Assembly (NCBI RefSeq): GCF_000012285.1
Contig: NC_007181.1
Coordinates: forward strand, 977,706-1,001,705
Length of the DNA stretch: 24,000 nucleotides
Direction: 5' to 3'
DNA from: Sulfolobus acidocaldarius DSM 639
GTDB lineage: Archaea; Thermoproteota; Thermoprotei_A; Sulfolobales; Sulfolobaceae
Position numbers and translations under genes: made by a program. Shown piece after piece: positions 4,257-24,000 of the stretch (the stretch's first letter is position 1; every line of letters begins with the position of its first letter). The notes under the pieces were generated by a model. That model had not been told where the DNA came from, did no database searches, and worked only from the letters and a program-made list of their open reading frames with translations.

Positions 4257-5333
4257 GTGCAATCATCAGCATTTCTCCAACTATCAGATATCTGGAAATC
4301 ATTTAAAATAAAAAAACAAGTTATTGAGGTTCTCAAGGGAGTTTCTCTTGATGTAAATAAGGGGGAATTTGTGGTAATATTAGGTCCCTCAGGAGAGGGC
4401 AAAACTACACTTCTCAGAATAATATCAGGGCTTGAGGTTCAAGACAAAGGTGAGGTTTACATTGACGGAGAAAGGGTCGATAATATTCCACCTAAAGATA
4501 GAAACGTTGCTATGGTATTCCAAAACTACGCCATATACCCATTCATGTCAGTCTTTGACAATATAGCCTTTCCTCTGAAACTGAAAAAACTACCTAAACA
4601 AGAGATAGCAAAAAAGGTTAGAGAGGTAGCCGAATTATTGCAGATAGAAAAGCTCCTCGATAGAAAACCTTACCAGTTATCGGGTGGACAAAAGCAAAGG
4701 GTAGCAATTGCCCGTGCCCTAGTCAAAGGTGCACAGTTATTATTGATGGATGAACCTTTAGCTAATCTCGATGCACAAATAAGAATGATAGCAAGAGAAG
4801 AACTCAAAGAACTTCAGAGAAAGTTAGGATTCACCGTAGTTTACGTTACACACGATCAGACTGAAGCCCTTGCTCTAGCCGACAGAGTAGCATTACTTAG
4901 GAAGGGTGTACTTCAGGCATACGATAAACCAATGAAATTGTTTAAGAGACCTAACAATATATGGGTAGCGTCGTTCTTAGGTAATCCACCTATGAATCTA
5001 CTTAAAGTAAAGGTTGATGAAGGTGCAGTGTTATTAGATGAGTATAAGATTGAAATTCCCTCTGAAATATCGGAGAAACTAAAGGGTAGAAGCGAAGTTA
5101 TCATGGGTATAAGACCAGAAGATATAGATATAGGAGGGAAAATTAAAGGGAGCGTGGAATTAACTGAACCTCTAGGTCTTTTCTCAGTGATACATGTAAA
5201 AATACGTGAGGATGAAATAAGAGTTGTAACAAATTCATCAAGCTCTTACGTTAAGGGTGACACTATACAATTAGCTATTTCAGGGAACAAAGCTCTATTC
5301 TTCGATGAAAGTACAGGTGAGTTAATAACATAA
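4257..5333 (+). CDS. malK: ABC transporter ATP-binding protein (MalK-type, sugar import)
   Basis: This is a 358-aa ORF with a GTG start at 4257. It has Walker A GPSGEGKTT, the ABC signature LSGGQKQR, Walker B LLLMDEPL, the H-loop VTHD, and a C-terminal TOBE/MalK-like regulatory domain. Confidence 0.93.
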   Translation: MQSSAFLQLSDIWKSFKIKKQVIEVLKGVSLDVNKGEFVVILGPSGEGKTTLLRIISGLEVQDKGEVYIDGERVDNIPPKDRNVAMVFQNYAIYPFMSVFDNIAFPLKLKKLPKQEIAKKVREVAELLQIEKLLDRKPYQLSGGQKQRVAIARALVKGAQLLLMDEPLANLDAQIRMIAREELKELQRKLGFTVVYVTHDQTEALALADRVALLRKGVLQAYDKPMKLFKRPNNIWVASFLGNPPMNLLKVKVDEGAVLLDEYKIEIPSEISEKLKGRSEVIMGIRPEDIDIGGKIKGSVELTEPLGLFSVIHVKIREDEIRVVTNSSSSYVKGDTIQLAISGNKALFFDESTGELIT

Positions 5334-5660
5334 AGAATCTTGCGATGGTTAACCATGGAAGGTATTAAACTAAAAATTCTTAGTAAAAAAATAACCTTCA
5401 ACCTTCCATAAAATTCTTGTGTACTTATTTAAAGCAAATTATTATTGCTAAACGGTGAATATTACATTAAATGTGAATAGAACTTAGATCGTCTTAACAT
5501 CTATTAATTTCTTAGCCCAATCAAATTATTCTTATTTATCTAACCACCTCGTAATTCATGGTCATGAATCGGGCGAAACTATACCTAACGTACAATATAA
5601 GACAACATTTAAGAAGAGAAATCGAAAATCTTAAAAAAGGCTAACTTATTTACTAAACCT

Positions 5661-6143
5661 CTAGTCAGATCCTGCTCCACAACCACAGTACCCAAACTCG
5701 TCAATCTCCAGACCACATACAGGACATGAGTTTAAATCACTTGCTTCTATCCTCATGTTCGATAGATTATCCAAGTCCACCAACGCTTTCACTAAATCCC
5801 TTATTGAAACAATACCGTGGACCTTATCACCCTCAACTACCGGTAAGTGTCTAAATCCGTTATCCACCATTGTTTTTAAGGCAGTATAAATATCGGTGCC
5901 TATTTTTACTCCTTTTACCTCTCTGCTCATATAATCTCCTACTGTTGCATCAAAATTACCATCTGCAAATGCTTTAACTACATCTCTTTCTGTTATTATT
6001 CCAACTACTTCCTCATTCTCGTTTACCACTACTAATGCTCCTATATTGTGGTTTCTCATCTCTCTAGTTGCCCTCAAAAGACTGTCATTTTCTCTTACCA
6101 CAAGGACGGGCTTACTTATATATGTTTTTAATTCTGATAGCAT
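5661..6143 (-). CDS. CBS-pair domain protein with C-terminal Cys-rich (CxxC...CxC) zinc-ribbon-like tail
   Basis: The ORF track gives 5661..6194. I prefer the internal ATG at 6143 (MLSELKTYISKPVLVV) because a TATA-like TTTATATTTTTAAAT lies about 30 nt upstream of it, inside the longer ORF. There are two CBS motifs (IGALVVVNENEEVVGIITERDV and FRHLPVVEGDKVHGIVSIRDL). The tail is SCPVCGLEIDEFGYCGCG. Confidence 0.85.
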   Translation of the reverse strand: MLSELKTYISKPVLVVRENDSLLRATREMRNHNIGALVVVNENEEVVGIITERDVVKAFADGNFDATVGDYMSREVKGVKIGTDIYTALKTMVDNGFRHLPVVEGDKVHGIVSIRDLVKALVDLDNLSNMRIEASDLNSCPVCGLEIDEFGYCGCGAGSD

Positions 6144-7874: not shown

Positions 7875-8020
7875 ATATTTCTTTTTAACTAAATATAATA
7901 AAAAGTTAACTTATACTAAAGCGACGTCGCACAAAATTTTGCCGGTAATTTCCTGATTTTCCAGGTCATTAGAGAAAATTAAACATGTCTTTTTATTACC
8001 TTAAATACATAATATACACT
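7875..8020. promoter_or_regulatory. Divergent trxB / msrA promoter region
   Basis: This is a 146-bp AT-rich spacer. A TATA-like TTTTTATTATATTT (minus-strand reading of 7897-7910) serves trxB, and TTTTATTACC (7991-8000) lies about 26 nt upstream of the ATG at 8021 for msrA. Confidence 0.5.
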
Positions 8021-8551
8021 ATGGAAGTTGCAACTTTAGGCGGAGGTTGCTTCTGGTGCACAGAAGCAGTGTTTAAGAGAGTTAAAGGTGTAGTAAGTGT
8101 TAAACCGGGTTATTCCGGTGGAAAAGTTCCAAATCCAACTTATGAAGAAGTATGCACAGACGAGACAGGACATGCTGAGGTAGTCCAGATAACCTTCGAT
8201 CCCTCAGTCATCACATATAGGGAATTGCTCGAGATATTTTTTGAAATTCATGATCCAACTACACCCAATAGACAAGGTAATGATGTAGGCTCTCAATACA
8301 GATCAATAATACTCTATCATAGTGAGGAACAGAAGAAGATCGCCGAGGAGATGATTAAGCTTTACGAGAGGAAGTTAGGTAAAAAGGTCGTTACCGAGTT
8401 AGTACCTTTTGAAGCATTTTATGAGGCTGAGGATTATCATCATGACTTTTACGACAAGCACAAGAATTATCCCTATTGCAAATTAGTTATTGACCCTAAA
8501 GTAAAGAAATTTATGAAAAACTTCCCAGATAAGGCTTCAATAAGGATCTAA
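8021..8551 (+). CDS. msrA: Peptide methionine-(S)-sulfoxide reductase MsrA
   Basis: The active-site motif GGGCFWC lies at the extreme N-terminus ([18 protein letters not shown]), followed by GYSGG and the HDPT..NRQG.D.G.QYRS signature. The track ORF starts at 7985, but that ATG lies upstream of the TATA-like element. Starting at 8021 gives a canonical 176-aa MsrA. Confidence 0.92.
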
Positions 8552-8696
8552 TGCACTGTACTGTTAATAGAATAGTGGTTGATTTATAAATGACTTTGTA
8601 AATAGATTATAAACTCAAGTGAATAAAAATTTTTAATCTTTTGATTTATGCTCCTTTCTTATACTATATTTATTAATTTATCGACACTGTATCATT

Positions 8697-8761
8697 AAAA
8701 TATTTTGAATGTGCACTTTTATACATATAAGAGACCATGTTATTGGCATTCAAAAATATTT
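8697..8761. repeat. Imperfect inverted repeat (14-15 bp arms, about 35-bp spacer) in an ORF-free spacer
   Basis: The left arm AAATATTTTGAATG (8698-8711) is the reverse complement of the right arm CATTCAAAAATATTT (8747-8761) apart from one extra A. Confidence 0.6.
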
Positions 8762-9381
8762 AGTCATTGAAAATTGTGCTAAAACCCTGGTTTAAGGAGG
8801 ATCTAGATGTTGAAAAAACTACAAAATAGTGATTTAGTTAGTTCGAGTCTTGACAGATTTTTTTAATTAATTACAACAAATTATACAATATTATAATAGA
8901 GTAGGTAGGTGAACCTGGATTACTAATAGATTAGGGGGTAAATATTAAAAGCCTCAATTTTCTACCAACTATTTTCATGTAATAATATTTAAATACATGT
9001 AAATTGAAAAACCGTTTACTTAAACTTTTTAAAACACTCCCAGAGGGATAGGGGCTAACAAGAGCAAATAATTTTTATCTGTATGTTCTAAAAATTAAAG
9101 TAAAAATGATTTTTATAGTTGGAAATTTTCTAGTTCCTTGCAACTCTGTAGTATTATATAAGTATTGACGTGAATTTTGCGTTTAGTGAAATCACGTAGA
9201 GCCGAATTTTGTACGCTTTTCAAACGTTAAACCTATATTAGAGTAAAAATAACAGCAGGGAATTCACAGGAGAGTTAAGCTTTCGGCCAAGATTTTAGGT
9301 GGTTATTATTTTTTATATTAATTAACCTTAAAAAGGACTAAAATTTTTACGTATTTAAATACCTGTGTATTATCATTATGA

Positions 9382-10191
9382 ATGTCTTCCATGAATAAGA
9401 GAGTGTTTGACATACTTAGAGAATTAGACTCTCTTGTCGATTTCTCTAGGGCAAAACTACAGTGGGATATATTAATTATACTTGCAACCAAAGGACCATC
9501 ATCGACAACAGAAATCTCACAAACAATAAACACAAGCAGAAAATCCATAATAGACGCAATAAGAAAACTAGTTGACAAAGAACTTGTAACAAAAGTTAAA
9601 GGAGATATATATGGTCTATCTGAAAAAGGGGAGAAGTTACTAGAAAGTTTTGACTCTATAATGTCTATTAATGTAACAGATAAACCTGATTCTTCCATAG
9701 AAAGTAACAGTATCAGTTTGACCAACATAGCAGAATATTTTTACATGCTAGAGATCTTAAAGATGGCACTTTTAAATAAACAGATAACCATAGATAAGGC
9801 TTCTCATGAACTCGGAATTTCTAAGCAGACCCTAAAATATTACATAGAGACCTTTACGGAAAATAAACTCCTGAAAGTAGTAAATCAGGAGAGTGTTTTA
9901 GGGAAGTCAAAAAAGATATATGTTTTAACTGATGAGAGCCGTAAGTTAGTATCTAGACTACCTGAGCTTACACGACTTAAGAGAAACCTACCCCTTAAGA
10001 TCCTGTTAAAACTCACGGGAAGTTATAGATACGAGATCGCCTTAACTAAAGTAATGCTATTCAACGTGATATCAATTCCGGTTCTTATGTATCTCAAGGA
10101 TCAGTTGGGTATATTGGAAGCGATATGGTTATATGTGATAATTCTACTTCCGTTACTTTCGATATTCGCAGAAATATTTAACAGGATATAA
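9382..10191 (+). CDS. arnR1: Membrane-anchored HTH transcription regulator, ArnR paralogue (archaellum regulatory network)
   Basis: This is a 269-aa ORF. It has an N-terminal winged-HTH region (ILATKGPSSTTEISQTINTSRKSIIDAIRKLVDKELV), a second HTH-like segment (ISKQTLKYYIETF), and two C-terminal TM helices (VMLFNVISIPVLMYL and IWLYVIILLPLLSIFAEIF). It is a paralogue of the ORF at 17238..18047. A TATA-like TATTTAAATA (9351-9360) lies about 27 nt upstream of the ATG. Position next to flaJ fits arnR1 (Saci_1171) as I remember it. Confidence 0.88.
   Translation: MSSMNKRVFDILRELDSLVDFSRAKLQWDILIILATKGPSSTTEISQTINTSRKSIIDAIRKLVDKELVTKVKGDIYGLSEKGEKLLESFDSIMSINVTDKPDSSIESNSISLTNIAEYFYMLEILKMALLNKQITIDKASHELGISKQTLKYYIETFTENKLLKVVNQESVLGKSKKIYVLTDESRKLVSRLPELTRLKRNLPLKILLKLTGSYRYEIALTKVMLFNVISIPVLMYLKDQLGILEAIWLYVIILLPLLSIFAEIFNRI
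9420..9600 (+). repeat. 181-bp block 100 percent identical to 17267..17447 (copy 1, inside arnR1)
   Basis: I compared the two copies base by base and found no mismatch over 181 bp. Flanking sequence on both sides is highly diverged. Both copies have the same codon phase (offset 38 nt from the arnR1 start and 29 nt from the arnR start, each 2 mod 3). Confidence 0.95.
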
Positions 10192-10235
10192 TTTAAGGTC
10201 CTTTCAAAATAAGTACCTTTGGTCATATATTTTCA

Positions 10236-11672
10236 TCAAGTTGTATTCTGAATGCCACTAATTATACCTCCAGATGAAAAAGCTTGAAACAGTTGCGCGG
10301 TGAGCGTTAATATGACATAATACGATATCGCGCTCATAATCATAAGTAGACCTATAAAGTATAGGCTTGCATAAATAGACTTACCATAAGCCAAAGATAT
10401 CGCCATCCCATTCGCAAAACTCATGACGAAAAGCATTATTAAAAATATTTTAGAAACAAATCCTATATCAATAGGGTTGAACGCTATTACCGAAGCCAAT
10501 TCACCAATCGAAAATAAATTATTCAGCATACTAGTTATAGAGATTAAGGCAGCAGAAACGCCTGCTGAGGACACTTGAAGTGCGTATATAGAAGCCTCGA
10601 AAGCCCTACCGTTCTGCTCCTTTCTGGCTCTTATATTCAGTACTACATCACCTATTTTACTTAATATCTCTCCGGTGATCAACATATTACCTCCATTACT
10701 AATTGTCTCGTACAAGATCTCACTGAGCATAGTTACGAGTACGCTTTTACTTTCTCTTCCCATAAGGGAAAAAATTTTGCTTTTATTAACTCCTAAGTTT
10801 AGCCTGTTTAATGCCCTTCTTATCATAGGTTTTGCAGAACCTAAATCACCCCTTAAAACAGCCATCAGTGACTCCTTTAGATTGTTTACAACTGAATAAT
10901 TTCTAGTAAAATAACGCGTAAATAACAAAAAATATCTCTCTAAATTATTTATTTTATTTTCAAATATCCTGTATCTCATTCCCACTCCTAAATAGAGAAC
11001 TCCTGTTATTATCATTGTTATAAATGATGTATAGGTTAGATTTAATGCAATTCCCAGTAAAATTAAAGCAGTTAATAAAAGTCTGTCTCTACTACTATAT
11101 CGCATATAGCTTTCAGGTTTATATATATAGTACATGATTACAGTTAAATTAACTAAGATGACCGTGGAGAGAAAGAAAATCTGTAATAGTATACTAGAAC
11201 CACCAGAGTAAAGAACTGATAGGACAGTCATGTCTGCTACGAGAAATGCTAAAGAACTATTCAAGGTTGCATAGACTGTGAGGAAATTGTTCATAGATTC
11301 AATAACTCTAGCTGAGTGAGAACTGTACTCAGCCAATGAGAAATCTATTTCCCTCTCTAGAAACTGAACCATGTCGTCTCCAAAAGTAACGGCCTGTGAT
11401 AATCTTACCAGAAATTCACTTAGAAATTTTACTTTAGAATTTCTTATAGCATAGTTTATTCCTTGTGAAAATTTATATCTAAATCCTGATACTAAATTCT
11501 TTATTCTCCTAAAGACCTTCAAATACGGATGAAAAGAGTCCTTATTTGATACTTTTAACAAAACCGTTTCAGGGGGCAACCCTGCAGAAAAGAGAGCCAT
11601 CATGAAAGCTAACATAAAGATATATTTAGAGTCCATTTCCTCTTTTTTATTCCTGTCAAATATTACTGACAT
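10236..11672 (-). CDS. flaJ: Archaellum polytopic membrane platform protein FlaJ/ArlJ (TadC/PilC-like)
   Basis: This is a 478-aa multi-TM ORF and the last gene of the operon. Its start overlaps the flaI stop by 17 nt. The architecture, with two cytoplasmic domains alternating with TM bundles, is typical of type IV filament platform proteins. Confidence 0.9.
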
Positions 11673-13197
11673 ATTTTATCGCCTCCTCCAAACCCATCTG
11701 TCTCGCTCTTAAAATATAATCCCAAACATCATAATAGTTGAATATCTTCTTCTCTACAAGAAGATTTAAAAACCTGGATCGCATCTGCAACTCATCATAT
11801 AACAAGCCGATATTCCTTCTATCTATGCCCCTCTTGACTGCTATCTTGTTCTCGATTAGATATGAAGATCCTTTTCCAGCAAATAACATCTTATCCTGAA
11901 CTGAATCATACGTAAATGCAGGGATATAAACTACGTCATTTGTCACAGGATCTATGTCTATTATTTCGTCGACCTCGACAACCCTCCTGATTAGATTCCC
12001 TTTCTTATCGTATAAGGCAGTTTGAAATAACGCAATATTCAAGTTATTAATATAACTCTTTGGAACCTCTATAGGATAACCAGTAAGTCGCTGTATTAAC
12101 GTCGTTATATTCGCTGCATGAAACGTTGCCATTACTGAGTGACCAGTTTGCATAGCCTGAAAGGCGACATTTCCCTCCTTGTCTCTAATTTCTCCCACAA
12201 GTATGTAGTTTGGTCTTTGTCTTAATGCAGCTTTAAGTAAGTCAAATAATTTTATTGTACCTTCACCACCAGTTTCTCTAGTGACCTCTGCAACCCAATT
12301 TGAATGCGGAACCGTCAATTCTGGAGTGTCCTCAATAGTAACTATCTTTAGATTTGGGGGAATGAAAGCAGTTATGGCATTTAATGTAGTTGTCTTTCCA
12401 GATGCGGTTTCTCCACATACAAAAAGATTCATTCCCTCATCCAGCATAGTCCATATATATGCCGCCATCATAGAGGATAATGTTCCAAACATGATGAGTT
12501 GAGTTATACTGGTTGGAACTCTACTAAATTTCCTGACAGTTAGATTTGATCCTCTTCTACTTATATCAACACCGTACACAAAATTTACCCTAGAACCGTC
12601 AGGCAGACTCGCATCAACTACTGGTCTGTTATGAGAAACGGGCCTATATGACTTTTCACTGAGGGAAACTATTAGATTATCTAACTCTTCATAATTCTCA
12701 AATTTAATTGAAGTTCTCATTGGACCGAAAACCTTATGAACGATATATACATGTCCTAGCCCTGGTATTGATATATCTTCTATGTAAGGATCTCTAATGA
12801 GAGGTTCTAATGAACCTGTATATAACTTATCCCTGATGAAATGGTAAATAACATATTCCTTTGGAACAGAAAGCCTCATTCTTAGAAGGATTTTATCTAA
12901 TATTGAGCGTATTAATTTTTCTTTCTCCTTAGTATCTTCTGGTGGTTCCTTATCGCCGATAGATAAGGCAAACTTCTCCTCTATTTCCTCCATTTCATCA
13001 TGAGTAGGTCTAGGAGGTTCTATAACATTATATTGATTATAGCCATCCTCACTTTTTATACTCTGAATATGAATATAAACAAAATCGTCTACTCTATAGA
13101 TTGCATTAAATATTTTGCTCCCCTTCAAGATATTTGGGTTTTCTATTATTGTAGGTCTTTCCTGAAGTTTTGTTAAATAGTCTTCCACGAAGCTCAT
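11656..13197 (-). CDS. flaI: Archaellum assembly/rotation ATPase FlaI/ArlI (secretion superfamily ATPase)
   Basis: This is a 513-aa ORF with Walker [10 protein letters not shown], Walker B-like ILVGEIRD, and Asp/His boxes typical of VirB11/PilB-type hexameric ATPases. It starts 3 nt after the flaH stop. Confidence 0.95.
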
Positions 13198-13200
13198 GAC

Positions 13201-13887
13201 TTATGCCCTCGATAAGGATAATGGTACAACCTTAATGCCCAGCGCAGGATCCACATCAAAAGAAATTGTGTCTGAACCAGATATTCCTCCTGTAGTTTTT
13301 ACTCTTTCTAGGATCTTTACTCTTCTTCCACCTATAGTCGCAGCCGAGAGCTTAAGATACACATCAACTATACTAGTTATTTTACTCTTCATTTCCTCGT
13401 CAAAAGTATCTGGATGAATAGTGAATAGAATCATTTTACCCGTATTAACTAAGACCCTGATGTCCTTCATAAATTGTAATAACTGCTTCTCCTTTGAGAA
13501 AGCAGCTAGTATTGACAAACTATCGATTACGATGAAGTCTATATTTTTACTTCTTATAAAGTTTACAATAACATCTAAAATTTTCTCAGCTAAACTAGAG
13601 TTCCAATTAAATTTCTTCGTATTCAATGGAGCAATTCTTAGTTTTCCCCTTATAAAGTATGGTATTAAATCGATCTTTATTTCCTTCATCTTAATCAAGT
13701 AATCTTTAGTAGTCTGCTCCGTAGTAATCACATATCCCTTCTTATCTGACAATAGAAAACCTAATACGAATTGAGCAGATAACACACTCTTACCCGTGCC
13801 ATGATCTCCTTCTATCATTATCGATGCTGGATATGGTATTCCTCCTAGTCTTCTATCTAGATCGTCATTACCGGTACTTATAATCAT
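13201..13887 (-). CDS. flaH: Archaellum RecA/KaiC-like ATP-binding protein FlaH/ArlH
   Basis: The ORF has Walker A GDHGTGKS and a RecA-like fold (IVIDSLS). The track ORF starts at 13902. I prefer the ATG at 13887 (MIISTGNDDLD) because it forms an ATGA overlap with the flaF stop and is preceded by GGAGGGG. This gives 228 aa. The start could still be 13902. Confidence 0.9.
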   Translation of the reverse strand: MIISTGNDDLDRRLGGIPYPASIMIEGDHGTGKSVLSAQFVLGFLLSDKKGYVITTEQTTKDYLIKMKEIKIDLIPYFIRGKLRIAPLNTKKFNWNSSLAEKILDVIVNFIRSKNIDFIVIDSLSILAAFSKEKQLLQFMKDIRVLVNTGKMILFTIHPDTFDEEMKSKITSIVDVYLKLSAATIGGRRVKILERVKTTGGISGSDTISFDVDPALGIKVVPLSLSRA

Positions 13888-14378
13888 AGGCTTCCCCTCC
13901 ATATTACCGATGGACCATAGTTTGTTACAATGACTACTGTAGCTTGAGTATTTGGATACGGAGGATATGGCAGAATGATAGTTAAAGTAGCCTGAGAGCC
14001 TGGAGCTAACAAAGGAGTATTAATTGTCCAATAATAAGGGCTAGGGTTAGAGTTCTTTGTGTAGTTATATAACGAGAGATTGAAAGTTGAGATATTGCTA
14101 ATGTTAGCATAGTATTGTACTATAACGGAAAAACCTTGAAAATCATACAGATTAGTAGATCCATTATTTTCTAACACAACATTCAAAGTACTTCCCGTTA
14201 ATGATACGGAGCTTACAGTTATCTTCGTTTCTAACTGTTCTAATTCCAATTCATGATTTAATTCTTGTGCTTGATTCAAAATTTGCTGGCTCTTAAAATA
14301 TGCACTCAACAATACAATTCCAAATGAAACACCAATAAAAGTTATTAGAATAAACGCCAAAGTTTGTGACACTCCCAT
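13884..14378 (-). CDS. flaF: Archaellum stator-associated protein FlaF/ArlF (N-terminal TM helix plus beta-sandwich)
   Basis: This is a 164-aa ORF with an archaellin-like hydrophobic N-terminus (MGVSQTLAFILITFIGVSFGIVLL). Its position between flaG and flaH is as in Sulfolobales fla operons. Confidence 0.88.
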   Translation of the reverse strand: MGVSQTLAFILITFIGVSFGIVLLSAYFKSQQILNQAQELNHELELEQLETKITVSSVSLTGSTLNVVLENNGSTNLYDFQGFSVIVQYYANISNISTFNLSLYNYTKNSNPSPYYWTINTPLLAPGSQATLTIILPYPPYPNTQATVVIVTNYGPSVIWRGSL

Positions 14379-14379
14379 T

Positions 14380-14844
14380 TTAGCTTACCTTAAACATGTA
14401 ACTAACAGTATATCCATTGGGTGTAACAATCTGAATAGTATAGTATTGGTTTGATGATAACGGAGAAGACAAATAGATAATGATTTTTACTACTGACCCT
14501 GGCTGTAGTGAATTAGATGTAACTGTCCAATAGGGGGAAGAACCTGAATTATAGCCTACAGGTTGCAATTGACCATTTGGACCGAAATACACTACACTAT
14601 TTTGAAGGTAAGAGATCGTTGTTTCCCCCACATTATGTAAATATGCAACTACAGTGTTTGAGCTCGTGTTAGTAGCATAATCTATCTGTAGTTGTGTCAA
14701 CATTTTTTGAGATTGTTGAATAGAATATGACGACATTGTCGTAGAGATAGATGAGGCGACTGAAAAAACGGTTCCCGCTAAAACGCCAATAAGAGTTACA
14801 GAAACTATTATCATAATGGTCTCACTTATAACCTCACTAACCAT
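14380..14844 (-). CDS. flaG: Archaellum protein FlaG/ArlG (N-terminal TM helix plus beta-sandwich)
   Basis: This is a 154-aa ORF with a hydrophobic N-terminus (ETIMIIVSVTLIGVLAGTVF). It overlaps the flaX stop by 8 nt and ends 1 nt before the flaF start. Confidence 0.88.
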   Translation of the reverse strand: MVSEVISETIMIIVSVTLIGVLAGTVFSVASSISTTMSSYSIQQSQKMLTQLQIDYATNTSSNTVVAYLHNVGETTISYLQNSVVYFGPNGQLQPVGYNSGSSPYWTVTSNSLQPGSVVKIIIYLSSPLSSNQYYTIQIVTPNGYTVSYMFKVS

Positions 14845-15589
14845 TCACACCACCACCCTCCAAAATCATTATATATTTCTTAATTTCAGGAGTTAGTGAT
14901 GAGTAACTCTCAGCTATATTTGCAGCAATAGAAGCTAACTCTTTCGCTGTAATTTTTCTATTCTTTATGAAAGATAAAATTCTTAGAATAGTAAACATAT
15001 CATCTGAAGAGACATATCCTAATTCATACAGCTGTTTAATTTTTTCTTCATCATATTCCATTATCTCCAACAGGACACATGATTTTATAAACCATGTTAA
15101 GTTTACGTTATTAGGGTTATTAGATCCTACTAACTGACTTACGGTACTAATCTCTCTACTAACATGTTCTTCTTCCTGCTGAATTATTGTATTAAACGGT
15201 GAGGAGGAATCTGATTCACTTGCCTTCACAGATAAGGCTAACTCTTCAACTGCTGAGTTAAGATTCTCTATCAATTTTTTCATCTCATTAAAACTGTTTG
15301 TTATATTTGTCAACAATTCATTCTCTTTTTTATCCATCTTCCCTAACACATCCTTTAGAGCCTTTTCGATACTGTCACTTGAGTATTTTGAGGTTTCATC
15401 ATTAGCAGGTTTCTGCTGAGTCGGAAATCGCTGTTCTTGAGAAATGTTTTGAGGGCTTTGCTGGGTTTGCACTCTCTTAGTCTTTGGTAAAATTACACGG
15501 AATAGAATTTCTAGGAATGCAGCTATAGGTATACCAACTCCTATCAATATTATGAATAATGATGATTGTAATAGATCTTGGATAGCCAT
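14837..15589 (-). CDS. flaX: Crenarchaeal archaellum scaffold/ring protein FlaX/ArlX
   Basis: This is a 250-aa ORF with an N-terminal TM helix (SLFIILIGVGIPIAAFLEILF), a polar Gln/Ser-rich linker, and a coiled-coil-like middle (ELLTNITNSFNEMKKLIENLNSAVEELALSV). It is the second gene of the operon, as in S. acidocaldarius. Confidence 0.88.
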   Translation of the reverse strand: MAIQDLLQSSLFIILIGVGIPIAAFLEILFRVILPKTKRVQTQQSPQNISQEQRFPTQQKPANDETSKYSSDSIEKALKDVLGKMDKKENELLTNITNSFNEMKKLIENLNSAVEELALSVKASESDSSSPFNTIIQQEEEHVSREISTVSQLVGSNNPNNVNLTWFIKSCVLLEIMEYDEEKIKQLYELGYVSSDDMFTILRILSFIKNRKITAKELASIAANIAESYSSLTPEIKKYIMILEGGGVNG

Positions 15590-15664
15590 TACTCATGCAC
15601 CGCCTTAGTGGGAAATATTAAATAAAAAACATTATATCTTAAATATCTTCTCATTTTAAACCAT
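15590..15664 (-). promoter_or_regulatory. flaB-flaX intergenic region: candidate flaB terminator (T6) plus candidate internal flaX promoter
   Basis: On the minus strand, GTTTTTTATT (the A6 run at 15624-15629 on plus) lies about 36-41 nt after the flaB stop. TTTAATATTTCC (15611-15622) lies about 28 nt upstream of the flaX ATG. This is the only real gap (75 bp) in an otherwise overlapping operon. Confidence 0.45.
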
Positions 15665-16579
15665 TTATCCTATAACTGTCACTTTTCCATCAGGCTGATA
15701 GATATACTGGGATATTGTTAATGGTGAACCAATATTTGGAGTTATCTGAATTGTCACAGTCTCGTATTGGAAAACGTTAGTTGCCTCGCCAGGACCAAAT
15801 AATATCATCACACCTATTACGGATCCAGCAGGAGCTATATCACTTCCGGCTAATGGGAAGCCGGATACTGGATACGTGAAGGCAAATGTTTTATTAACAT
15901 ATGCATAGTATTCTACCTCCGTACCGTTAACACTTATATTGAAGGTAAATACGTTATCGTTCTTTAGCCATGGCTTTGATGCTACTATAGACGTATTAGA
16001 AATGATATAGAGAGGAGAAGATGTTAATTGACCACCCTTAACCTCCTGACCTAAAGTATAATTCAGAGCTAATAATGCATAATTGGGATCGGAATAGTAT
16101 ACATAAGTTTGTCCTGCACTATTGGAAGAAAAGGCTAATGTTAAATTTATAATACTGGTGCCTAATTTAACTTGTACTTTGTTATTCACCTGGCTAGGTA
16201 GTACAGATAATAAACTGAATTGGTAGATGTTAGATAGTGACACTCCTCTACTAGCAGCTGTAAACGATATTGCTGTAGTTGAAGGAGATAAGTCTACACT
16301 AGATACACCAGAACTAGGAGATACAGTGAAATACATCCAGTAACTCTTTGTATTGGTGGGATAATTCACTGCATATAGCACATTTCCTGATAAAGATAAC
16401 GCAGTAGACGCAGTTTCTTCTCCTTTATTTATAGTAGTCTTAGCTTTTTGAGTTACAAATAACCCCATATTTACTGCAACATATGCCAAAACTGCTGCTG
16501 TTATTATGAATGCTATTAATATTATTGCTGTATCCAATCCTGCTAAACCTCTTGTTTTCCTTCTTTTCATGTATATCAT
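15665..16579 (-). CDS. flaB: Archaellin FlaB/ArlB (archaellum filament subunit) with class III signal peptide
   Basis: This is a 304-aa ORF, or 301 aa if it starts at 16570 (MKRRK). The N-terminus KRRKTRG/LAGLDTAIILIAFIITAAVLAYV is a type IV pilin-like prepilin-peptidase (PibD/FlaK) site followed by the conserved archaellin hydrophobic helix. The C-terminal end (ITPNIGSPLTISQYIYQPDGKVTVIG) matches Sulfolobus archaellins as I remember them. Confidence 0.95.
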   Translation of the reverse strand: MIYMKRRKTRGLAGLDTAIILIAFIITAAVLAYVAVNMGLFVTQKAKTTINKGEETASTALSLSGNVLYAVNYPTNTKSYWMYFTVSPSSGVSSVDLSPSTTAISFTAASRGVSLSNIYQFSLLSVLPSQVNNKVQVKLGTSIINLTLAFSSNSAGQTYVYYSDPNYALLALNYTLGQEVKGGQLTSSPLYIISNTSIVASKPWLKNDNVFTFNISVNGTEVEYYAYVNKTFAFTYPVSGFPLAGSDIAPAGSVIGVMILFGPGEATNVFQYETVTIQITPNIGSPLTISQYIYQPDGKVTVIG

Positions 16580-16721
16580 GTTTCTATCACTTTTTCAAAA
16601 TGAGATTTCTAAGTTGGTCTTTAAAAACCTCCCCTCGATCTTCGACCAAAAATCACAATTTTTCGACTGCTGATCGACGTTAATTTAGTCTTTTTTTTAA
16701 AGAACTTTTATTTTATTATAC
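16580..16721. promoter_or_regulatory. flaB promoter / upstream activating region, shared with the divergent small ORF
   Basis: On the minus strand, a TATA-like GGTTTTTAAAGA (16618-16629) and GTGAT (16586-16590) precede the flaB ATG. Upstream of the TATA element, TCGAC occurs at 16642-16646, 16663-16667 and 16674-16678 (spacing 21 and 11 bp), and TCGATC occurs at 16635-16640. The palindrome AAAAAT-CACA-ATTTTT lies at 16648-16663. Confidence 0.6.
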
Positions 16722-17099
16722 ATGATACTGATGAGAAGGCAATATATTCTTATATCATTATTAATGATACCTTTTCTTATAGTGCTATCAATACTTTATG
16801 ATACACCTTTATTCATGGCTCCAGTTCCGCTATTCTTATTCTACATATCTAGAATTATCGGAATTAACACAATAAATGATAGTAAATCGCTTTATAGATA
16901 CATAAAGAGATATTATGGGAAAGAAATTGCAGATAAAATTCAACAAAACTTTAAAGTTGTAAATAGCTTTGACTTATTGGATAATAATTCTCTTATAATA
17001 TTTGATAACATATTAATTCTAAAAATTAACAATAAAATAGGAGTTTTTGAAATAGAGGAGGGTATAGACTATCTAATAAGGCTAATGAATTATGTGTAA
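16722..17099 (+). CDS. Small hypothetical membrane protein (2 predicted TM helices plus a soluble tail of about 80 aa)
   Basis: This is a 125-aa ORF divergent from flaB and upstream of arnR. Hydrophobic segments are ILISLLMIPFLIVLSILY and LFMAPVPLFLFYISRIIGI. I recognise no motif. The gene is very AT-rich. The call rests on ORF length, TM pattern, and a T-rich TATA-like tract about 25 nt upstream. Confidence 0.6.
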   Translation: MILMRRQYILISLLMIPFLIVLSILYDTPLFMAPVPLFLFYISRIIGINTINDSKSLYRYIKRYYGKEIADKIQQNFKVVNSFDLLDNNSLIIFDNILILKINNKIGVFEIEEGIDYLIRLMNYV

Positions 17100-17237: not shown

Positions 17238-18047
17238 ATGACCAAGAGTCTATTCGATGTGTTAAAAGAATTAGACTCTCTTGTCGATTTCTCTAGGGCA
17301 AAACTACAGTGGGATATATTAATTATACTTGCAACCAAAGGACCATCATCGACAACAGAAATCTCACAAACAATAAACACAAGCAGAAAATCCATAATAG
17401 ACGCAATAAGAAAACTAGTTGACAAAGAACTTGTAACAAAAGTTAAACATGATATCTATGGGTTATCCGACAAGGGAAAGGAACTTTGGAACAAGATCGA
17501 TTCGGTCTTAAACATAGAAGTGATAAACGGAAATAATCATAAAGGACAAAGCAAAGATGAAGATATATTAGCTTTAGAAAACCTATCCCAATATTTTTAC
17601 TTAATTAACTTATCCAAAATGATTACAATCAATCACGATGGATTGAGTCTAGATAAAGCAGCTAGAGAATTAGGAGTCTCAAGACAAACACTCAAATACT
17701 ACCTTGAACTCTTTGAGGAGAAGAAATTATTCAGAGTTATAGGTAAGAGGACTCATTTTAAGAAAAATATCTATAAGTGTGTATTAATGAATGAAGGTAA
17801 AAGGCTATTATTCAGATTACCCGAGTTTACGAAAATGAAAAATAATCTTCCGCTTAAGCTACTTCTAAGACTAACAAATAGTTATACTCTCGAAATGGCA
17901 AACGTCAAAGTTATGGGATTTATTCTAATCTCTTTACCATTACTCATGTACTTTAGAGACCAATTAGGTCTAATTGAACTGCCCTGGTTATATGCAGTAA
18001 TATTCTTAGCACTTTTAAGTGTATTTGCGCAAATCCTCAGTAGATAA
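17238..18047 (+). CDS. arnR: Membrane-anchored HTH transcription activator of the archaellum operon, ArnR
   Basis: This is a 269-aa ORF with the same architecture as arnR1: a wHTH, a second HTH (VSRQTLKYYLELF), and two C-terminal TM helices (VMGFILISLPLLMYF and WLYAVIFLALLSVFAQIL). A TATA-like ATATTTAAATTTT (17201-17213) lies about 30 nt upstream of the ATG. Position between flaB and the kinase fits arnR (Saci_1180) as I remember it. Confidence 0.9.
   Translation: MTKSLFDVLKELDSLVDFSRAKLQWDILIILATKGPSSTTEISQTINTSRKSIIDAIRKLVDKELVTKVKHDIYGLSDKGKELWNKIDSVLNIEVINGNNHKGQSKDEDILALENLSQYFYLINLSKMITINHDGLSLDKAARELGVSRQTLKYYLELFEEKKLFRVIGKRTHFKKNIYKCVLMNEGKRLLFRLPEFTKMKNNLPLKLLLRLTNSYTLEMANVKVMGFILISLPLLMYFRDQLGLIELPWLYAVIFLALLSVFAQILSR
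17267..17447 (+). repeat. 181-bp block 100 percent identical to 9420..9600 (copy 2, inside arnR)
   Basis: See copy 1. The two copies are in direct orientation with an offset of 7847 bp. The identical antisense pseudo-ORFs in the track (MSTSFLIASIMDFLLVFIVCEISVVDDGPLVASIINISHCSFALEKSTRESNS) are a by-product of this block. Confidence 0.95.
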
Positions 18048-18316
18048 ACCCTTTTTACCATATTATACCTACTAGAATTTCATTCAATATTTTCTTGTCT
18101 ATTTTAAGATTAGAAATAGTTAATCATGAAATAAATTTCTCTCATATCATAGCTAATCACATTAAAAGAGATAGAATAGTTTAAAAACAGGTGTTTCAAT
18201 ACTAATTATATACAATAAGAAGATATACCCACATAAAGTTGAGATGATACGAGGTGTTAGTTAGTGGAAATTAGGATAATTCACAAGCGAATTTTTCAGT
18301 ATTAGTAGTAAAAGCT

Positions 18317-20188
18317 ATGTTAATGTCGTTTATATTATTGATATCGACATCTATGATACTTATTTCAGTTTTCAGTTATGTGCTGATAGCTTTGATAGTT
18401 TTAGGAATAGTTTTGTCACTAATATCATTGCTATCTCCTAGAGTATCTTACGTATCTTCAGTTTACCTGATAGGTCTAACAGTATATTTAAATCCAGGAT
18501 TTTCTCTAACTCAGTCCCTGATAAATACTGTTCCTATCCTAGGAGAAATAAATATGTTAAGTGGGCTGTTGAAGACTCCTGTAACTTCAATAATATCTAG
18601 CCTTTTCTCCCTAGCATTATTAAATTTAGGCATAAAGGGTTATGAGATATATTTGAGTAAGCACGCTGATATCGTGAAATTAGATTCAATAATTTTCTCC
18701 CAACACGGTCTTCCGAAGCAGGCTAACTGGAATATTGTTGTTAATTCTGAAGTAAAACTCCTCAAGTCAAATGAGAAGCTTATATTAAGCAATACTCCAG
18801 AAGCGAAATATGAACTTTGCCCAACATTGGTAGACCATAAATATTACGTGCCCAATAAGGTGACGGGTTTAGCCTTTGAGGGAGAGGTTATAAGGATTAA
18901 TTACTCTCCAGTTGACGGTGTACCGTATGAAAAGTTCAGGAACTGTTTTACAGTATTTGAGGTCGAAGGACTACCTCCAGATACGAGTTTTGTAATTGAA
19001 ATTAATGGTGCGTCATTGAAGCTCAAGGATAGAAAGTTCGCTAAACTGTCGCTGGAGCCTTTGTACTGGAAAGTAAATGAAATCAGGATATCTAGAGAGG
19101 ATGAAGAAGAAATTTATGAACCTGACATAAAAGAGGGTTTAACTTTTAGAGGTGGGACAGTTAAAATAAACTTCAGGAGGAAAGTGATTAGATATAAAAC
19201 AGCTAAAATACCATCTATAGAAAATTGGGATCCTGGAATTTGGGTGGGTCAAGAGGTTTATGGTTACAGGGTAATTGAAGTAATAGGATTAGGTGGAAAT
19301 GGATATGTTATGAAAGTGGAAAAGAACGGTTTATTATACGCTATGAAAGTTCTATCAGTAAATAAGTTCACCAATTCCCTAGAACACTTTGACAATCTGT
19401 TAAAGGAATCTGAAAATTTGGAAAAGTTATCAAAAGATCCAAGGTTAGTTAGTATATATGGCTCATTTGTAGACAAAAATAACATTCAGTCTGCGTTAGC
19501 TGGGGATTATACCAGCTATTATAAGTACCCGCCGGCAATTATAATGGAGTTTATGGAGGGCGGCACATTATTCGATCTAATTAGTAGAGTTGATCTTGTA
19601 CAGTCTAAATATTGGCAGTACATAGTCAAACTCGTCATAAAAGAAATAGCCAAAGCCCTGACGTTTTTACATAAAAGGGGATATGTTCACCTAGATGTAA
19701 AGCCACAAAATATATTTCTGAAAGAGAAAATCAACGGCGAGCCAGAAGTAGTTTATAAAATTCTGTCTTCTACCCCGGGAATAATTAAGTTGGGGGACTT
19801 AGGTAGTGCAGTTAGAGTAGGAGAGAAGATAACACAAGCAACACCAGCCTATTCACCACCAGAGCAAATAGAGGCAGTAATAACAGGAAAGGGAGCACAA
19901 CCCTCCATGGATAATTATGCATTAGGTGTTACACTATATAAGTTACTTACTATGAAGAACCTAGATTATGTTAACTATTTGGATAAAGCTTTCGATGAAT
20001 ACATCAAAGGGGATCCCAGTATTGCGATGAAATACATAAATATGGCTAAGATGAGTATGGTTAACTTTAAACCTAAACTACCTCATAATACTCTGCCCGA
20101 GTTAGCTAACGTAGTACAGGGAACATTAGTTGTAGATCCAAAGAGGAGACTGACCAGCTACGATATAGTTAAGATATTAGAAGGGTAA
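18317..20188 (+). CDS. arnS: Membrane-bound eukaryotic-type Ser/Thr protein kinase (ArnS)
   Basis: This is a 623-aa ORF. About 4 N-terminal TM segments (aa 1-115) are followed by a domain of about 190 aa that I cannot assign. The ePK domain runs from about aa 310 (nt 19244). It has the Gly-loop GLGGNGYV, the catalytic Lys in YAMKV, the catalytic loop HLDVKPQNIF (a non-RD variant), DLG in place of DFG (KLGDLGSA), and PPE in place of APE (YSPPE). Position next to arnR fits Saci_1181 (ArnS) as I remember it. Confidence 0.9.
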   Translation: MLMSFILLISTSMILISVFSYVLIALIVLGIVLSLISLLSPRVSYVSSVYLIGLTVYLNPGFSLTQSLINTVPILGEINMLSGLLKTPVTSIISSLFSLALLNLGIKGYEIYLSKHADIVKLDSIIFSQHGLPKQANWNIVVNSEVKLLKSNEKLILSNTPEAKYELCPTLVDHKYYVPNKVTGLAFEGEVIRINYSPVDGVPYEKFRNCFTVFEVEGLPPDTSFVIEINGASLKLKDRKFAKLSLEPLYWKVNEIRISREDEEEIYEPDIKEGLTFRGGTVKINFRRKVIRYKTAKIPSIENWDPGIWVGQEVYGYRVIEVIGLGGNGYVMKVEKNGLLYAMKVLSVNKFTNSLEHFDNLLKESENLEKLSKDPRLVSIYGSFVDKNNIQSALAGDYTSYYKYPPAIIMEFMEGGTLFDLISRVDLVQSKYWQYIVKLVIKEIAKALTFLHKRGYVHLDVKPQNIFLKEKINGEPEVVYKILSSTPGIIKLGDLGSAVRVGEKITQATPAYSPPEQIEAVITGKGAQPSMDNYALGVTLYKLLTMKNLDYVNYLDKAFDEYIKGDPSIAMKYINMAKMSMVNFKPKLPHNTLPELANVVQGTLVVDPKRRLTSYDIVKILEG

Positions 20189-20381
20189 AAGAGATTTCAT
20201 TTAACATTTTTATAATTATGATTTTTATTAAATAAAAACTAATACCTTGATTTCACCCCTTTAATTGAGTAAGTATATTTGTTTCTAAAACTTTTAGGAT
20301 TTGGCATTAAACTTCAATTTTAGTTTATCCTCTATTATAACACTTTAATTATGATTGTTAACAAGGGAAAAAGTTTTGTTT

Positions 20382-22222: not shown

Positions 22223-24000
22223 ATGTATATGAAGAAAAGGGTTTCCCTAATATTACTGATTCTATCAATAATTGTTATCTCTACTTCCTTTAGTTACGTT
22301 ATATCAACTGCTACACCAAACATTCAAGGATACTCGTCTTCCCCTGAGCTTATAACACCAGGAGAACAAGAGATACCTATAACATTTCACCTGATAAATT
22401 CAAACCCCTATGTCCTGTATAATGTACAAATTTCACCGACAGATACATATCCTTTTTACCTGTTCAACTACTATAATGTTAACCCTACAGTTACTATACC
22501 AGAATGGACTCCAGGACAAATGGTTAATGTCACATATATCTTCAATGTGGCAAATGGAGTTAAGGACGGAATTTATGAAGAGTTATTAAATATCCAGGCT
22601 ATAGTTAATAACCAGAGCATATATACTCAAGTATCAGTAGGAGTTCCAGTTCTGGGTTATGTTAACTTCACAGCATCATCAGTATGGGGAACACCATCAA
22701 ACCCAACAGTAGTAGGACCAGGACAAACAAACACACCACTAACAATAATACTACAAAACCTCGGAAACGCGTTAGTTACTAATGTCACCTTAGAGTTCAG
22801 CTCCCAGTTCCCCGTTAAATTCCTACAAAATAACGCAACAATTTCAGCCATAGAGCCAGGATATTATGGAGAGGCAACAGTCTTTGCCTCCGTATACCCC
22901 AACGCTACGGAAGGAGTATATTACATAAAACTTAAGGTAAATTATTACCAGAACAGTGTTCAGTATGTCACAGTCCCTATCGACATAGGTGCAGTTAGTA
23001 AAGTATCGTTGACAGATACATGGGGAACTCCGTCCAATCCTCAATTGGCTGCGGCTGGTTCCTCATTTTTACCCCTAACAATCTATGTGGAGAATTTGGG
23101 AGAAAACCTACTATCAAACGTAACACTAACACTAAAATCACACTACCCAATACAATTCCTACAAAATAATGCAACAATAGGCTTCGTACCAGCAGGACAA
23201 TACAACTACGCAACAGTAATAGCAAGTGTAGATAGGAATGCAACACCAGGTGTCTACTACATTCCAGTTACAGTAAGCATGTACAATGGGTACAAAGAGA
23301 CTGTAATGATGCCTATATACGTTTTGGGGTATGTTAACTTCACAGCATCATCAGTATGGGGAACACCATCAAACCCAACAGTAGTAGGACCAGGACAAAC
23401 AAACACACCACTAACAATAATACTACAGAATATAGGTACTGCAACTGTAACTAATGCTACATTACAACTAGAGTCACAATATCCAGTAAAGTTCCTTCAA
23501 AGTAACTTGAGTATAGGTAACATACCTGTTGGAGTACCTATTGAATTGACTGTGTTGAGCAATGTATATCCTAATGCAACAACTGGTGTGTATTTTGTAA
23601 GTGCTAAAATAACATATTATGACGGTATAACGAAGAATATCACGTTCCCAATATACATTCAGGGAAGTAATCAGGTTTCCTTACAGGGAATATGGGGCTC
23701 ACCATCAAACCCAATACTTGTTGCACCTGGTGAAAATAATATACCTCTAACTGTTGTTGTGGAGAATTTGGGAGAAAACCTACTATCAAACGTAACACTA
23801 ACACTAAAATCACACTACCCAATACAATTCCTACAAAATAACGCAACAATAGGCTTCGTACCAGCAGGACAATACAACTACGCAACAGTAATAGCCGATA
23901 TATATCCCAATGCGTCCTCTGGAGTTTACTACATTCCAGTTACAGTAAGCATGTACAATGGGTACAAAGAGACTGTAATGCTTCCTGTTGAAATACTAGG
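22223..24000 (+). CDS. Large secreted/surface protein built of tandem ~112-aa beta-sandwich-like (CARDB / COG1361 S-layer-domain-like) repeats, N-terminal part (runs off the right edge)
   Basis: It is absent from the ORF track because it has no stop in the window. The ATG at 22223 (alternative 22229, MKKRVSL) is preceded by an in-frame TAG, and the frame stays open for 592 codons to the window end. The N-terminus is a signal/anchor (KKRVSLILLILSIIVISTSFS). At least 5 repeats follow, of the pattern WGTPSNP..V.PG....PLT..L.N.G......V.L.L.S.YP..FLQ.N..I..I..G.......V..PNAT.GVYY. N-x-S/T sequons are very dense. All four antisense ORFs in the track between 22657 and 23885 are artefacts of this gene. 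Confidence 0.85.
   Translation, partial: MYMKKRVSLILLILSIIVISTSFSYVISTATPNIQGYSSSPELITPGEQEIPITFHLINSNPYVLYNVQISPTDTYPFYLFNYYNVNPTVTIPEWTPGQMVNVTYIFNVANGVKDGIYEELLNIQAIVNNQSIYTQVSVGVPVLGYVNFTASSVWGTPSNPTVVGPGQTNTPLTIILQNLGNALVTNVTLEFSSQFPVKFLQNNATISAIEPGYYGEATVFASVYPNATEGVYYIKLKVNYYQNSVQYVTVPIDIGAVSKVSLTDTWGTPSNPQLAAAGSSFLPLTIYVENLGENLLSNVTLTLKSHYPIQFLQNNATIGFVPAGQYNYATVIASVDRNATPGVYYIPVTVSMYNGYKETVMMPIYVLGYVNFTASSVWGTPSNPTVVGPGQTNTPLTIILQNIGTATVTNATLQLESQYPVKFLQSNLSIGNIPVGVPIELTVLSNVYPNATTGVYFVSAKITYYDGITKNITFPIYIQGSNQVSLQGIWGSPSNPILVAPGENNIPLTVVVENLGENLLSNVTLTLKSHYPIQFLQNNATIGFVPAGQYNYATVIADIYPNASSGVYYIPVTVSMYNGYKETVMLPVEIL
22658..23308 (+). repeat. Unit 1 of a 672-bp-period (224-codon, two-domain) intragenic duplication with mosaic identity
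   Basis: 22658-22755 equals 23330-23427 (98/98). 23086-23223 equals 23758-23895 (137/138, with one synonymous AAT/AAC change at 23170 versus 23842). 23255-23308 equals 23927-23980 (54/54). The 330 bp between the first two tracts is only about 45 percent identical at the protein level. Confidence 0.93.
23330..23980 (+). repeat. Unit 2 of the 672-bp-period intragenic duplication
   Basis: See unit 1. All three identical tracts share a constant offset of 672 bp. Confidence 0.93.

Follow-up and report, generated by a model that had tools for sequence, protein, structure and literature searches.

How can two regulators that differ over most of their length be encoded by exactly the same DNA in the part that reads DNA? 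The question is raised by a stretch of 24,000 nucleotides from Sulfolobus acidocaldarius DSM 639 (contig NC_007181.1, positions 977,706 to 1,001,705; hereafter the window, whose numbering we use unless another sequence is named). Here the genes arnR1 (9382..10191) and arnR (17238..18047), two plus-strand open reading frames (ORFs) of 269 codons each, encode membrane-bound winged helix-turn-helix (wHTH) activators and stand on either side of the archaellum operon. Both genes contain the same tract of 181 bp. We argue that this tract is very probably a patch of recent gene conversion between the two paralogues (ectopic conversion), a reading that rests on the comparison of sequences. The same tract also suggests how a divergent relative came to lack the operon at this locus.

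An identical tract in two diverged genes

The two copies of the tract, at 9420..9600 in arnR1 (encoding ELDSL...LVTKVK) and at 17267..17447 in arnR, match at 181 of 181 bases, and extension base by base gives 181 bp as the maximal exact run. The next position differs both at the 5′ border (G at 9419, A at 17266) and at the 3′ border (G at 9601, C at 17448). A repeat finder returns the copies as direct repeats, both on the plus strand, with a start-to-start spacing of 7,847 bp. The first base of the tract is the third position of codon 13 in ArnR1 (in the 269-aa reading) and of codon 10 in ArnR, and its last codon is that for K73 of ArnR1, which corresponds to K70 of ArnR. Its borders are abrupt: of the six codons for the conserved residues D-I-Y-G-L-S just 3′ of the tract, four already differ synonymously. 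The original prediction had called the two intervals identical at every base, had assigned them amino acids 14-73 of ArnR1 and 11-70 of ArnR, and had described the boundaries as sharp. Each of these statements is correct, the second following from the codon positions of the tract ends and the third from the synonymous differences that begin directly 3′.

All of the 277 differences over 795 aligned coding bases of arnR1 and arnR lie outside the tract. Nucleotide identity there is 55%, and the second-longest identical run is 11 bp. At the protein level, identity is 58% over the whole length and drops to 47% past the tract, which agrees with the earlier estimate that the flanks are roughly 50-60% identical and that the rest of the proteins are about half identical. 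When the 277 differing sites were permuted 100,000 times, in a test of the GENECONV type, the longest run to arise was 37 bp, and a run of 181 bp was never reached. Permutation of codons that specify the same amino acid likewise never reproduced the observed run of 61 identical codons (0/100,000).

The synonymous sites are especially informative. By the Nei-Gojobori method, the tract has no synonymous differences at 42.5 synonymous sites. Downstream of it, the proportions of synonymous (pS) and nonsynonymous (pN) differences between the paralogues are 0.83 and 0.35, and in the 9-10 codons upstream of the tract, synonymous differences are likewise saturated.

An explanation without any recombination would be that, ever since the duplication, every base has been held fixed by purifying selection, whether for the sake of the protein or of a DNA or RNA element embedded in the tract. 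The tract is in fact the most conserved part of the family, with 63-68% amino acid identity to the ArnR proteins of Saccharolobus, compared with 41-44% for the rest. However, constraint on the protein leaves synonymous sites free. Among codons that specify the same amino acid in both paralogues, 62 of 92 differ outside the tract and 0 of 60 differ inside it, a pattern that selection at the protein level cannot produce. The form of this explanation that invokes an embedded RNA element also finds no support, in that the tract has no Rfam match and no excess folding (z = +0.56). An antisense ORF of 136 codons (9318-9728, minus strand) overlaps the tract copy in arnR1, but no ORF of at least 80 aa is antisense to the copy in arnR. 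This lack of a counterpart counts against an overlapping gene as the source of constraint, and because of it the antisense ORF is probably spurious.

A comparison with S. acidocaldarius SUSAZ (CP006977), the only divergent relative in any collection that we searched, addresses the remaining constraint at the nucleotide level. The SUSAZ tract differs from that of DSM 639 at 15 of 181 sites, of which 10 are synonymous (pS 0.23). The background between these strains, as pooled from eight neighbouring genes, is a pS of 0.29, with a range of 0.18-0.37. When only same-amino-acid codons are counted, 9 of 56 differ in the tract, compared with a pooled fraction of 0.19 for the eight neighbouring genes. 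The tract therefore undergoes silent change at the ordinary rate between lineages yet shows none between paralogues, which implies concerted evolution and no constraint at the nucleotide level. This background-level divergence, together with the Rfam and folding results, rules out the tract as an embedded RNA or DNA element. Purifying selection is thus effectively refuted, and we give it next to no credence.

Another explanation is that the identity is not present in cells, but arose when reads of the two loci were merged during assembly or polishing. Short-read drafts do break or become mis-joined in this repeat. In LPSO01000001.1 (L004; positions 10001-10285 and 17850-18135), contig ends are stitched together in the tract, with N's and a Nextera adapter (…GAGATGTGTATAAGAGACAG). 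Similarly, LPRG01000013.1 (L005; 1976-2440 and 9991-10280) is stitched inside the tract with N's and a Nextera adapter. Such stitching has led to bogus deposited proteins, namely WP_062500475.1 (272 aa, with an STT duplication), 270-aa forms with the sequence SSTTTE, and proteins with the N-termini MCIRDR and MYKRQ. We considered whether the ArnR variant SSTTSTTE (272 aa) and the ArnR and ArnR1 variants SSTTTE (270 aa) could be strain-specific indels that prove ongoing conversion, but rejected this idea because they come from stitched contig ends.

Several observations contradict an artefact as the origin of the identity itself. Both a Sanger read and a long Illumina read exceed the 181 bp of the tract, which is bordered on either side by unique sequence. 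An independent complete genome (CP046615.1, L086) contains both exact copies, again 7,847 bp apart. Moreover, identical ArnR and ArnR1 proteins are found under accessions from at least 4-5 independent genome projects, complete genomes included (ArnR/ArnR1 pairs AAY80527/AAY80518, AGE71116/AGE71107, ALU31323/ALU31332 and WCM35053/WCM35044). The original prediction had named assembly collapse as an outcome that would overturn it. Given the agreement of independent projects and the constant spacing, we regard such an artefact as hardly credible for the tract identity.

Probable gene conversion and its age

We inferred neighbor-joining trees with ArnR proteins of Saccharolobus and other Sulfolobaceae and with Desulfurococcales outgroups, SUSAZ being the one divergent lineage. 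The region after the tract yields the topology (ArnR1,(ArnR,SUSAZ)) inside the Sulfolobus clade, whereas the tract yields ((ArnR1,ArnR),SUSAZ). The conflicting clades have 100% bootstrap support in each tree. These topologies imply that the duplication is older than the split between DSM 639 and SUSAZ, yet specific to this lineage. The trees thus point to arnR1 and arnR as an old duplication in the S. acidocaldarius lineage, with synonymous sites that are saturated outside the tract. The earlier claim of gene conversion rather than purifying selection is in accord with all of these lines of evidence: the synonymous sites, the borders, the divergence from SUSAZ and the incongruence of the trees.

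Other Sulfolobaceae loci that we recovered with FlaI, including L006 and L007, have a single arnR gene upstream of flaB. In L007, the 8.5 kb beyond flaJ do not contain a second arnR copy. A full HMMER pass over 1.84 billion representatives did not return a closer ArnR1-like protein. No further relatives were found in 5.8 billion clustered proteins, the 1.84 billion representatives, GTDB genomes or JGI metagenomes, and a metagenome scan with an alignment of ArnR, ArnR1 and the SUSAZ protein found zero relatives.

The tract differs at 15 of 181 sites between the lineages and at 0 of 181 between the paralogues. If a constant rate is assumed, the last homogenisation would be no older than about 19% of the age of the SUSAZ split (95% bound). 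Of the original wording, “recent or ongoing” conversion, the first part is consistent with this estimate. The second part is not demonstrated: every genome that has both genes is clonal with the window (0 mismatches over 15 kb), and SUSAZ has a single hybrid gene (see below), so that the comparison has no power to see repeated events.

A plausible route to such a patch begins with homologous recombination between arnR1 and arnR, either on one chromosome or between sister chromosomes. This would form a heteroduplex over the 5′, wHTH-coding part of the paralogues. Resolution of the mismatches would then copy the sequence of one paralogue onto the other with no exchange of flanks, and the patch would stop where the flanks, with about 45% mismatches, offer no homology to extend. 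In this manner, conversion would give both regulators the same helices a1-a3 and first wing strand, and with them recognition of the flaB promoter boxes, while their second domain and membrane anchor evolve separately. To our knowledge, S. acidocaldarius is a hyperthermophile without MutS or MutL. Recombination in this species involves short intervals, heteroduplex and uncoordinated short-patch resolution of mismatches (Mao and Grogan 2012, PMC3367456). That work resembles our case in documenting in-vivo conversion over short, moderately diverged intervals in the same species. However, it concerns transformed donor DNA at pyrE, whereas for the arnR tract we propose, from sequence, an exchange between chromosomal paralogues.

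Conversion between paralogues has precedents in archaea. Archibald and Roger reportedly described in 2002 interparalogue gene conversion in the thermosome (chaperonin) subunits of Crenarchaeota, and the homogenisation of rRNA operons in archaea is a further case. The arnR tract is like these systems in that it is a near-perfect patch in diverged paralogues, with conflict between trees and with concerted evolution within a genome. By contrast, it is a single short block of 181 bp with base-exact borders, located in the DNA-recognition module of two regulators, and its copies are direct repeats that bracket the operon these proteins regulate.

A hybrid gene and a missing operon in SUSAZ

The archaellum operon flaB/X/G/F/H/I/J (arlB-J) is located at 10236..16579 on the minus strand, as supported by Pfam and by exact matches to the deposited FlaB, X, G, F, H, I and J proteins. 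Between the flaB promoter and arnR is a gene for a conserved membrane protein of 125 aa (16722..17099, plus strand). Both lie inside the segment bracketed by the two tract copies, which is the segment that a crossover between the copies would delete. Outside this segment, msrA (7985..8551, plus strand) is located upstream of arnR1 and serves as the left synteny anchor, while arnS (18317..20188, plus strand), which encodes a Ser/Thr kinase, is directly downstream of arnR.

In SUSAZ (locus L001) the order is msrA, then a single gene whose 5′ part corresponds to arnR1 and whose 3′ part corresponds to arnR, and then arnS. Thus, msrA is directly upstream of the hybrid gene, and arnS is kept beside it. 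The switch point lies inside the tract. On the arnR1 side, SUSAZ is collinear with the window over 9.6 kb at 90.6% identity, a stretch that extends into the gene as far as its first 29 coding bases. Directly after the tract, starting with the very first base, the gene resembles arnR, and arnS comes next. The ~7.85 kb between the tract copies, which include the fla operon, are absent from the SUSAZ locus between msrA and arnS.

Protein clusters give the same picture. Among the eight proteins encoded in the bracketed segment, none (0/8) has a SUSAZ member in its 90% cluster. The flanking genes for a thioredoxin reductase, MsrA and an MFS transporter each have one. A search with FlaX returned no SUSAZ homologue. 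A FlaI scan of genome contigs returned neither DSM 639 nor SUSAZ, and is therefore silent as to fla genes elsewhere in SUSAZ.

The parsimonious reading is that SUSAZ lost the operon by recombination within the tract, which would leave an in-frame arnR1-5′::arnR-3′ gene. We favor a deletion because both paralogue halves predate the split and because other Sulfolobaceae have arnR adjoining flaB. The direct repeat of 181 bp that underwent conversion would also be open to reciprocal or single-strand-annealing recombination. Such an event would delete the operon and leave an arnR1-5′::arnR-3′ hybrid, which is the architecture of SUSAZ. As far as this one product indicates, the repeat is also a deletion substrate, unless the SUSAZ assembly collapsed.

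Deletion between direct repeats (“pop-out”) is used for markerless gene deletion in S. acidocaldarius. In both situations, identical direct repeats flank a segment, and crossover or annealing leaves one copy, as in the SUSAZ hybrid. The SUSAZ event differs from the engineered one in that it would be natural and in that the repeat resides in two coding sequences in the same frame, such that an intact hybrid regulator gene results.

Candidates for the same deletion in strains like DSM 639 come from the Logan collection. Two contigs, L002 (positions 1-2031, SRR10574308) and L003 (1-1024, ERR13709218), carry the exact arnR1/arnR deletion junction with 100% identity. They join 8617-9600 to 17267-18494 and 9242-9600 to 17267-18112, respectively, and encode a chimera of the ArnR1 N terminus and the ArnR C terminus (P0001). 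The reciprocal arnR/arnR1 chimera is absent from the Logan collection, in which intact arnR was never assembled and intact arnR1 was assembled once only. Perhaps these contigs represent real deletions in DSM 639-type strains, although we are doubtful; otherwise, they are graph chimeras across the repeat. The unique 5′ coding part of arnR is only 29 nt, so tip clipping or coverage-based removal of branches could yield the chimera. We rejected the two contigs as proof of recurrent deletion, in that they are short and the 181-bp repeat is a branching node in a graph with k=31.

The hybrid also bears on a different account of the identity, according to which the fla segment was lost via the paralogues and later regained by Campbell-type integration, through the tract, of a circle or of imported conspecific DNA. 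A hybrid of the SUSAZ type is the expected empty site for this process, and integration is the exact reverse of deletion. Chromosomal DNA is exchanged among S. acidocaldarius cells, and strains from around the world are near-identical, so that the tracts of donor and recipient could have been identical. However, this account requires two rare events instead of one. It also requires the donor tracts to be identical or nearly so beforehand, and thus presupposes homogenisation. In addition, there is no scar and there are no foreign flanks, with 0 mismatches over 15 kb of the window relative to other strains. We consider excision and reintegration quite improbable, and continue to explain the tract by gene conversion.

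Conversion and deletion might nonetheless be linked. The homogenised tract could make the archaellum operon an excisable cassette, if conversion keeps the repeats perfect and reciprocal recombination removes the 7.85 kb as a circle. This idea is speculative, and we think it unlikely. If it is true, a functional arnR1::arnR hybrid would remain by arnS, and the operon could be brought back through the tract, either by imported DNA or by a circle. SUSAZ would then represent a fixed loss, the Logan junction contigs would represent recurrent losses, and the tract would underlie a population-level switch between loss and regain of motility.

Several points weigh against gene conversion followed, in SUSAZ, by deletion. 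Two paralogous sequences in each genome and a single divergent lineage are too few to count the events or to identify the donor, and one recent event accounts for the DSM 639 data just as well as continuing homogenisation. The SUSAZ architecture comes from one assembly, and a collapse of two identical tract copies would look alike. A collapsed assembly would itself need near-identical copies, however, which implies that the tract is an island of homology in the SUSAZ lineage either way. The Logan contigs, at 1-2 kb, are weak evidence, since they may be de Bruijn-graph chimeras. Our data show the identity and its statistics, the ordinary divergence of the tract between lineages, the conflict of the trees and the SUSAZ hybrid, whereas the molecular pathway, the recurrence of events, the donor copy and any selection for homogenisation are matters that we infer.

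The arnR-like 3′ part of the SUSAZ hybrid (L001 10211-10807, corresponding to 17448-18044 in the window) has roughly twice the expected silent divergence, with a pS of 0.65 versus the background of 0.29. Of the same-amino-acid codons, a fraction of 0.38 differ, more than in the pooled neighbours (0.19), arnS (0.24) or the tract (0.16). Alleles that coalesced earlier, or DNA imported from a diverged lineage, could account for this extra divergence.

The SUSAZ arnS gene (L001 11080-12988) has an open frame, with 89.6% amino acid identity over aa 45-622, while its first ~44 residues are unaligned. We rejected the possibility that arnS is decaying in SUSAZ, given the open frame and the lack of coding indels over the aligned residues. 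The 316-aa database entry reflects a gene-calling choice, and the gene appears intact over the aligned part. Between arnS and the MFS gene, SUSAZ has ~4.4 kb of extra sequence (L001 13077-17461, versus ~90 bp at 20280-20367 in the window) that contains a gene with a metallo-beta-lactamase fold, an MFS gene and several tiny ORFs.

The DNA-reading domain and the surrounding genes

The two genes fit the family of ArnR-type membrane-bound regulators, which have an N-terminal wHTH and C-terminal transmembrane helices, and which are encoded beside the archaellum operon. ArnR1, of the Saci_1171 type, exactly matches deposited ArnR1 (P0017, P0003; Q4J9L2/AAY80518), and ArnR exactly matches the protein described as “HTH-type transcriptional activator ArnR” (P0010; AAY80527). 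Both have wHTH matches in Pfam (HTH_24, TrmB, MarR and HTH_45) at aa 20-94. The gene arnR1 has an alternative start at 9391 (MNKRV), which can be aligned to both ArnR and the SUSAZ protein. The AlphaFold2 model of ArnR (mean pLDDT 73) has C-terminal helices at 218-238 and 244-268. In this model, the tract corresponds to the end of helix a0, to helices a1-a3 including the recognition helix, and to the first wing strand, and its 3′ end is the wing tip of the wHTH.

The flaB promoter (16633..16677, minus strand) contains ArnR boxes, which are inverted repeats of the TCGA type; a pattern match at 16663-16677 agrees with the published consensus TCGAC-N5-GTCGA (PMC6396743). Thermophoresis experiments established that both ArnR and ArnR1 bind a flaB promoter fragment with two boxes, with Kd values of 4.6 and 3.3 uM, while fragments from the promoters of aapF and upsX are bound by ArnR only (PMC6396743). 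The original prediction that the two regulators should compete for identical DNA sites is therefore in line with the data on the flaB promoter, but not with those on aapF and upsX. It had also stated that their sensing and membrane parts differ, and this matches the published description at the protein level (PMC6396743, PMC10117864). Since the proteins differ in the promoters that they bind despite the shared tract, having the same a1-a3 head is not enough to make their targets the same. Something else must help to choose the targets, be it the wing tip (H71 in ArnR, G74 in ArnR1), the first ten residues at the N terminus or the parts that mediate oligomerisation.

These functional data also relate to the reason for the identity. 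Conversions might have been fixed because the two activators need to follow one and the same set of ArnR boxes, or to assemble into mixed oligomers, in which case the identity would be kept adaptively and would not be a neutral by-product. Both proteins oligomerise and have similar Kd values for the 41-bp fragment of the flaB promoter to which they bind, and the double deletion abolishes induction (PMC6396743, PMC10117864). In addition, the tract coincides almost exactly with the DNA-reading part of the wHTH. On the other hand, the tract stops at the wing tip and not at the border of the domain, with the second wing strand outside, and the promoters of aapF and upsX distinguish ArnR from ArnR1 even though both have the tract. 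Our results are compatible with either selection or neutral homogenisation. We consider adaptive maintenance possible, but rather unlikely.

Whether or not it is favored by selection, gene conversion would provide a DNA-level reason why two activators with different sensors share one DNA-reading head. For as long as the tract persists, neither head is free to diverge on its own. The tract also has practical consequences. Any construct, primer, tag or pop-in/pop-out arm that contains the first 210 bp of one of the genes is liable to recombine with the other locus. Assemblies from short reads break off or are mis-joined at the tract, and bogus protein entries have already resulted. Spontaneous loss of the operon through the repeat would be a predictable source of non-motile variants. 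Finally, a compact and clearly delimited archaeal conversion tract with a natural deletion product could be useful for measuring ectopic recombination in a hyperthermophile.

It was previously published that two paralogues flank the archaellum cluster, that their HTH regions are “almost identical” while their sensor parts differ, and that ArnR1 is restricted to S. acidocaldarius (PMC6396743, PMC10117864). The activators studied by Bischof et al. 2019 (PMC6396743) are the same genes, and in the literature the likeness is drawn at the protein level only. That paper does not contain the terms “gene conversion” or “duplication”. In the literature covered, which does not include the original 2013 description (Lassak et al.), we found no mention of a base-perfect DNA tract, of concerted evolution or of the SUSAZ hybrid. 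Thus, the process is well known, and the protein-level similarity of the genes is already published. What is new here is the DNA-level proof, the direct repeats that bracket the operon regulated by the genes containing them, and the hybrid, operon-less architecture of SUSAZ.

The middle part of ArnR could contain a further domain. AlphaFold2 predicts a second winged-helix domain at aa 116-183 of ArnR (17583-17786, and the matching part of arnR1), with helices at 116-131, 138-145 and 149-161 and strands at 165-171 and 177-183. Pfam gives weak matches to HTH_29 and HTH_20 at aa 133-163 of ArnR. The best Foldseek matches of this region in the PDB are tandem winged-helix ScpB, SelB WH2-4, IdeR and the MarR family, with E-values of 1e-3 or worse. 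In the literature, the region is annotated as a putative HAMP or sensing domain.

We now note two properties of the window that do not involve arnR1 or arnR. In the draft assembly LPSO01000001.1, a gene for an ABC-transporter ATPase (4257-5333 in the window) is split into pieces of 274 aa and 114 aa (positions 5552-5688 of the draft, versus 5038-5361 in the window). The split adjoins an 86-bp inverted copy of 5276-5361, and represents either an assembly error or a small rearrangement. At the 3′ end of the window (22223-24000), a large gene whose ORF runs off the end encodes a secreted or surface-type protein with repeats of ~224 aa and a period of 672 bp. This region is scrambled in the draft LPRG01000013.1 (15421-17144). 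The repeat copies are 82-90% identical and include a 61-nt block with 100% identity (22683-22743 and 23355-23415), making them another candidate for homogenisation, in this case within a gene.

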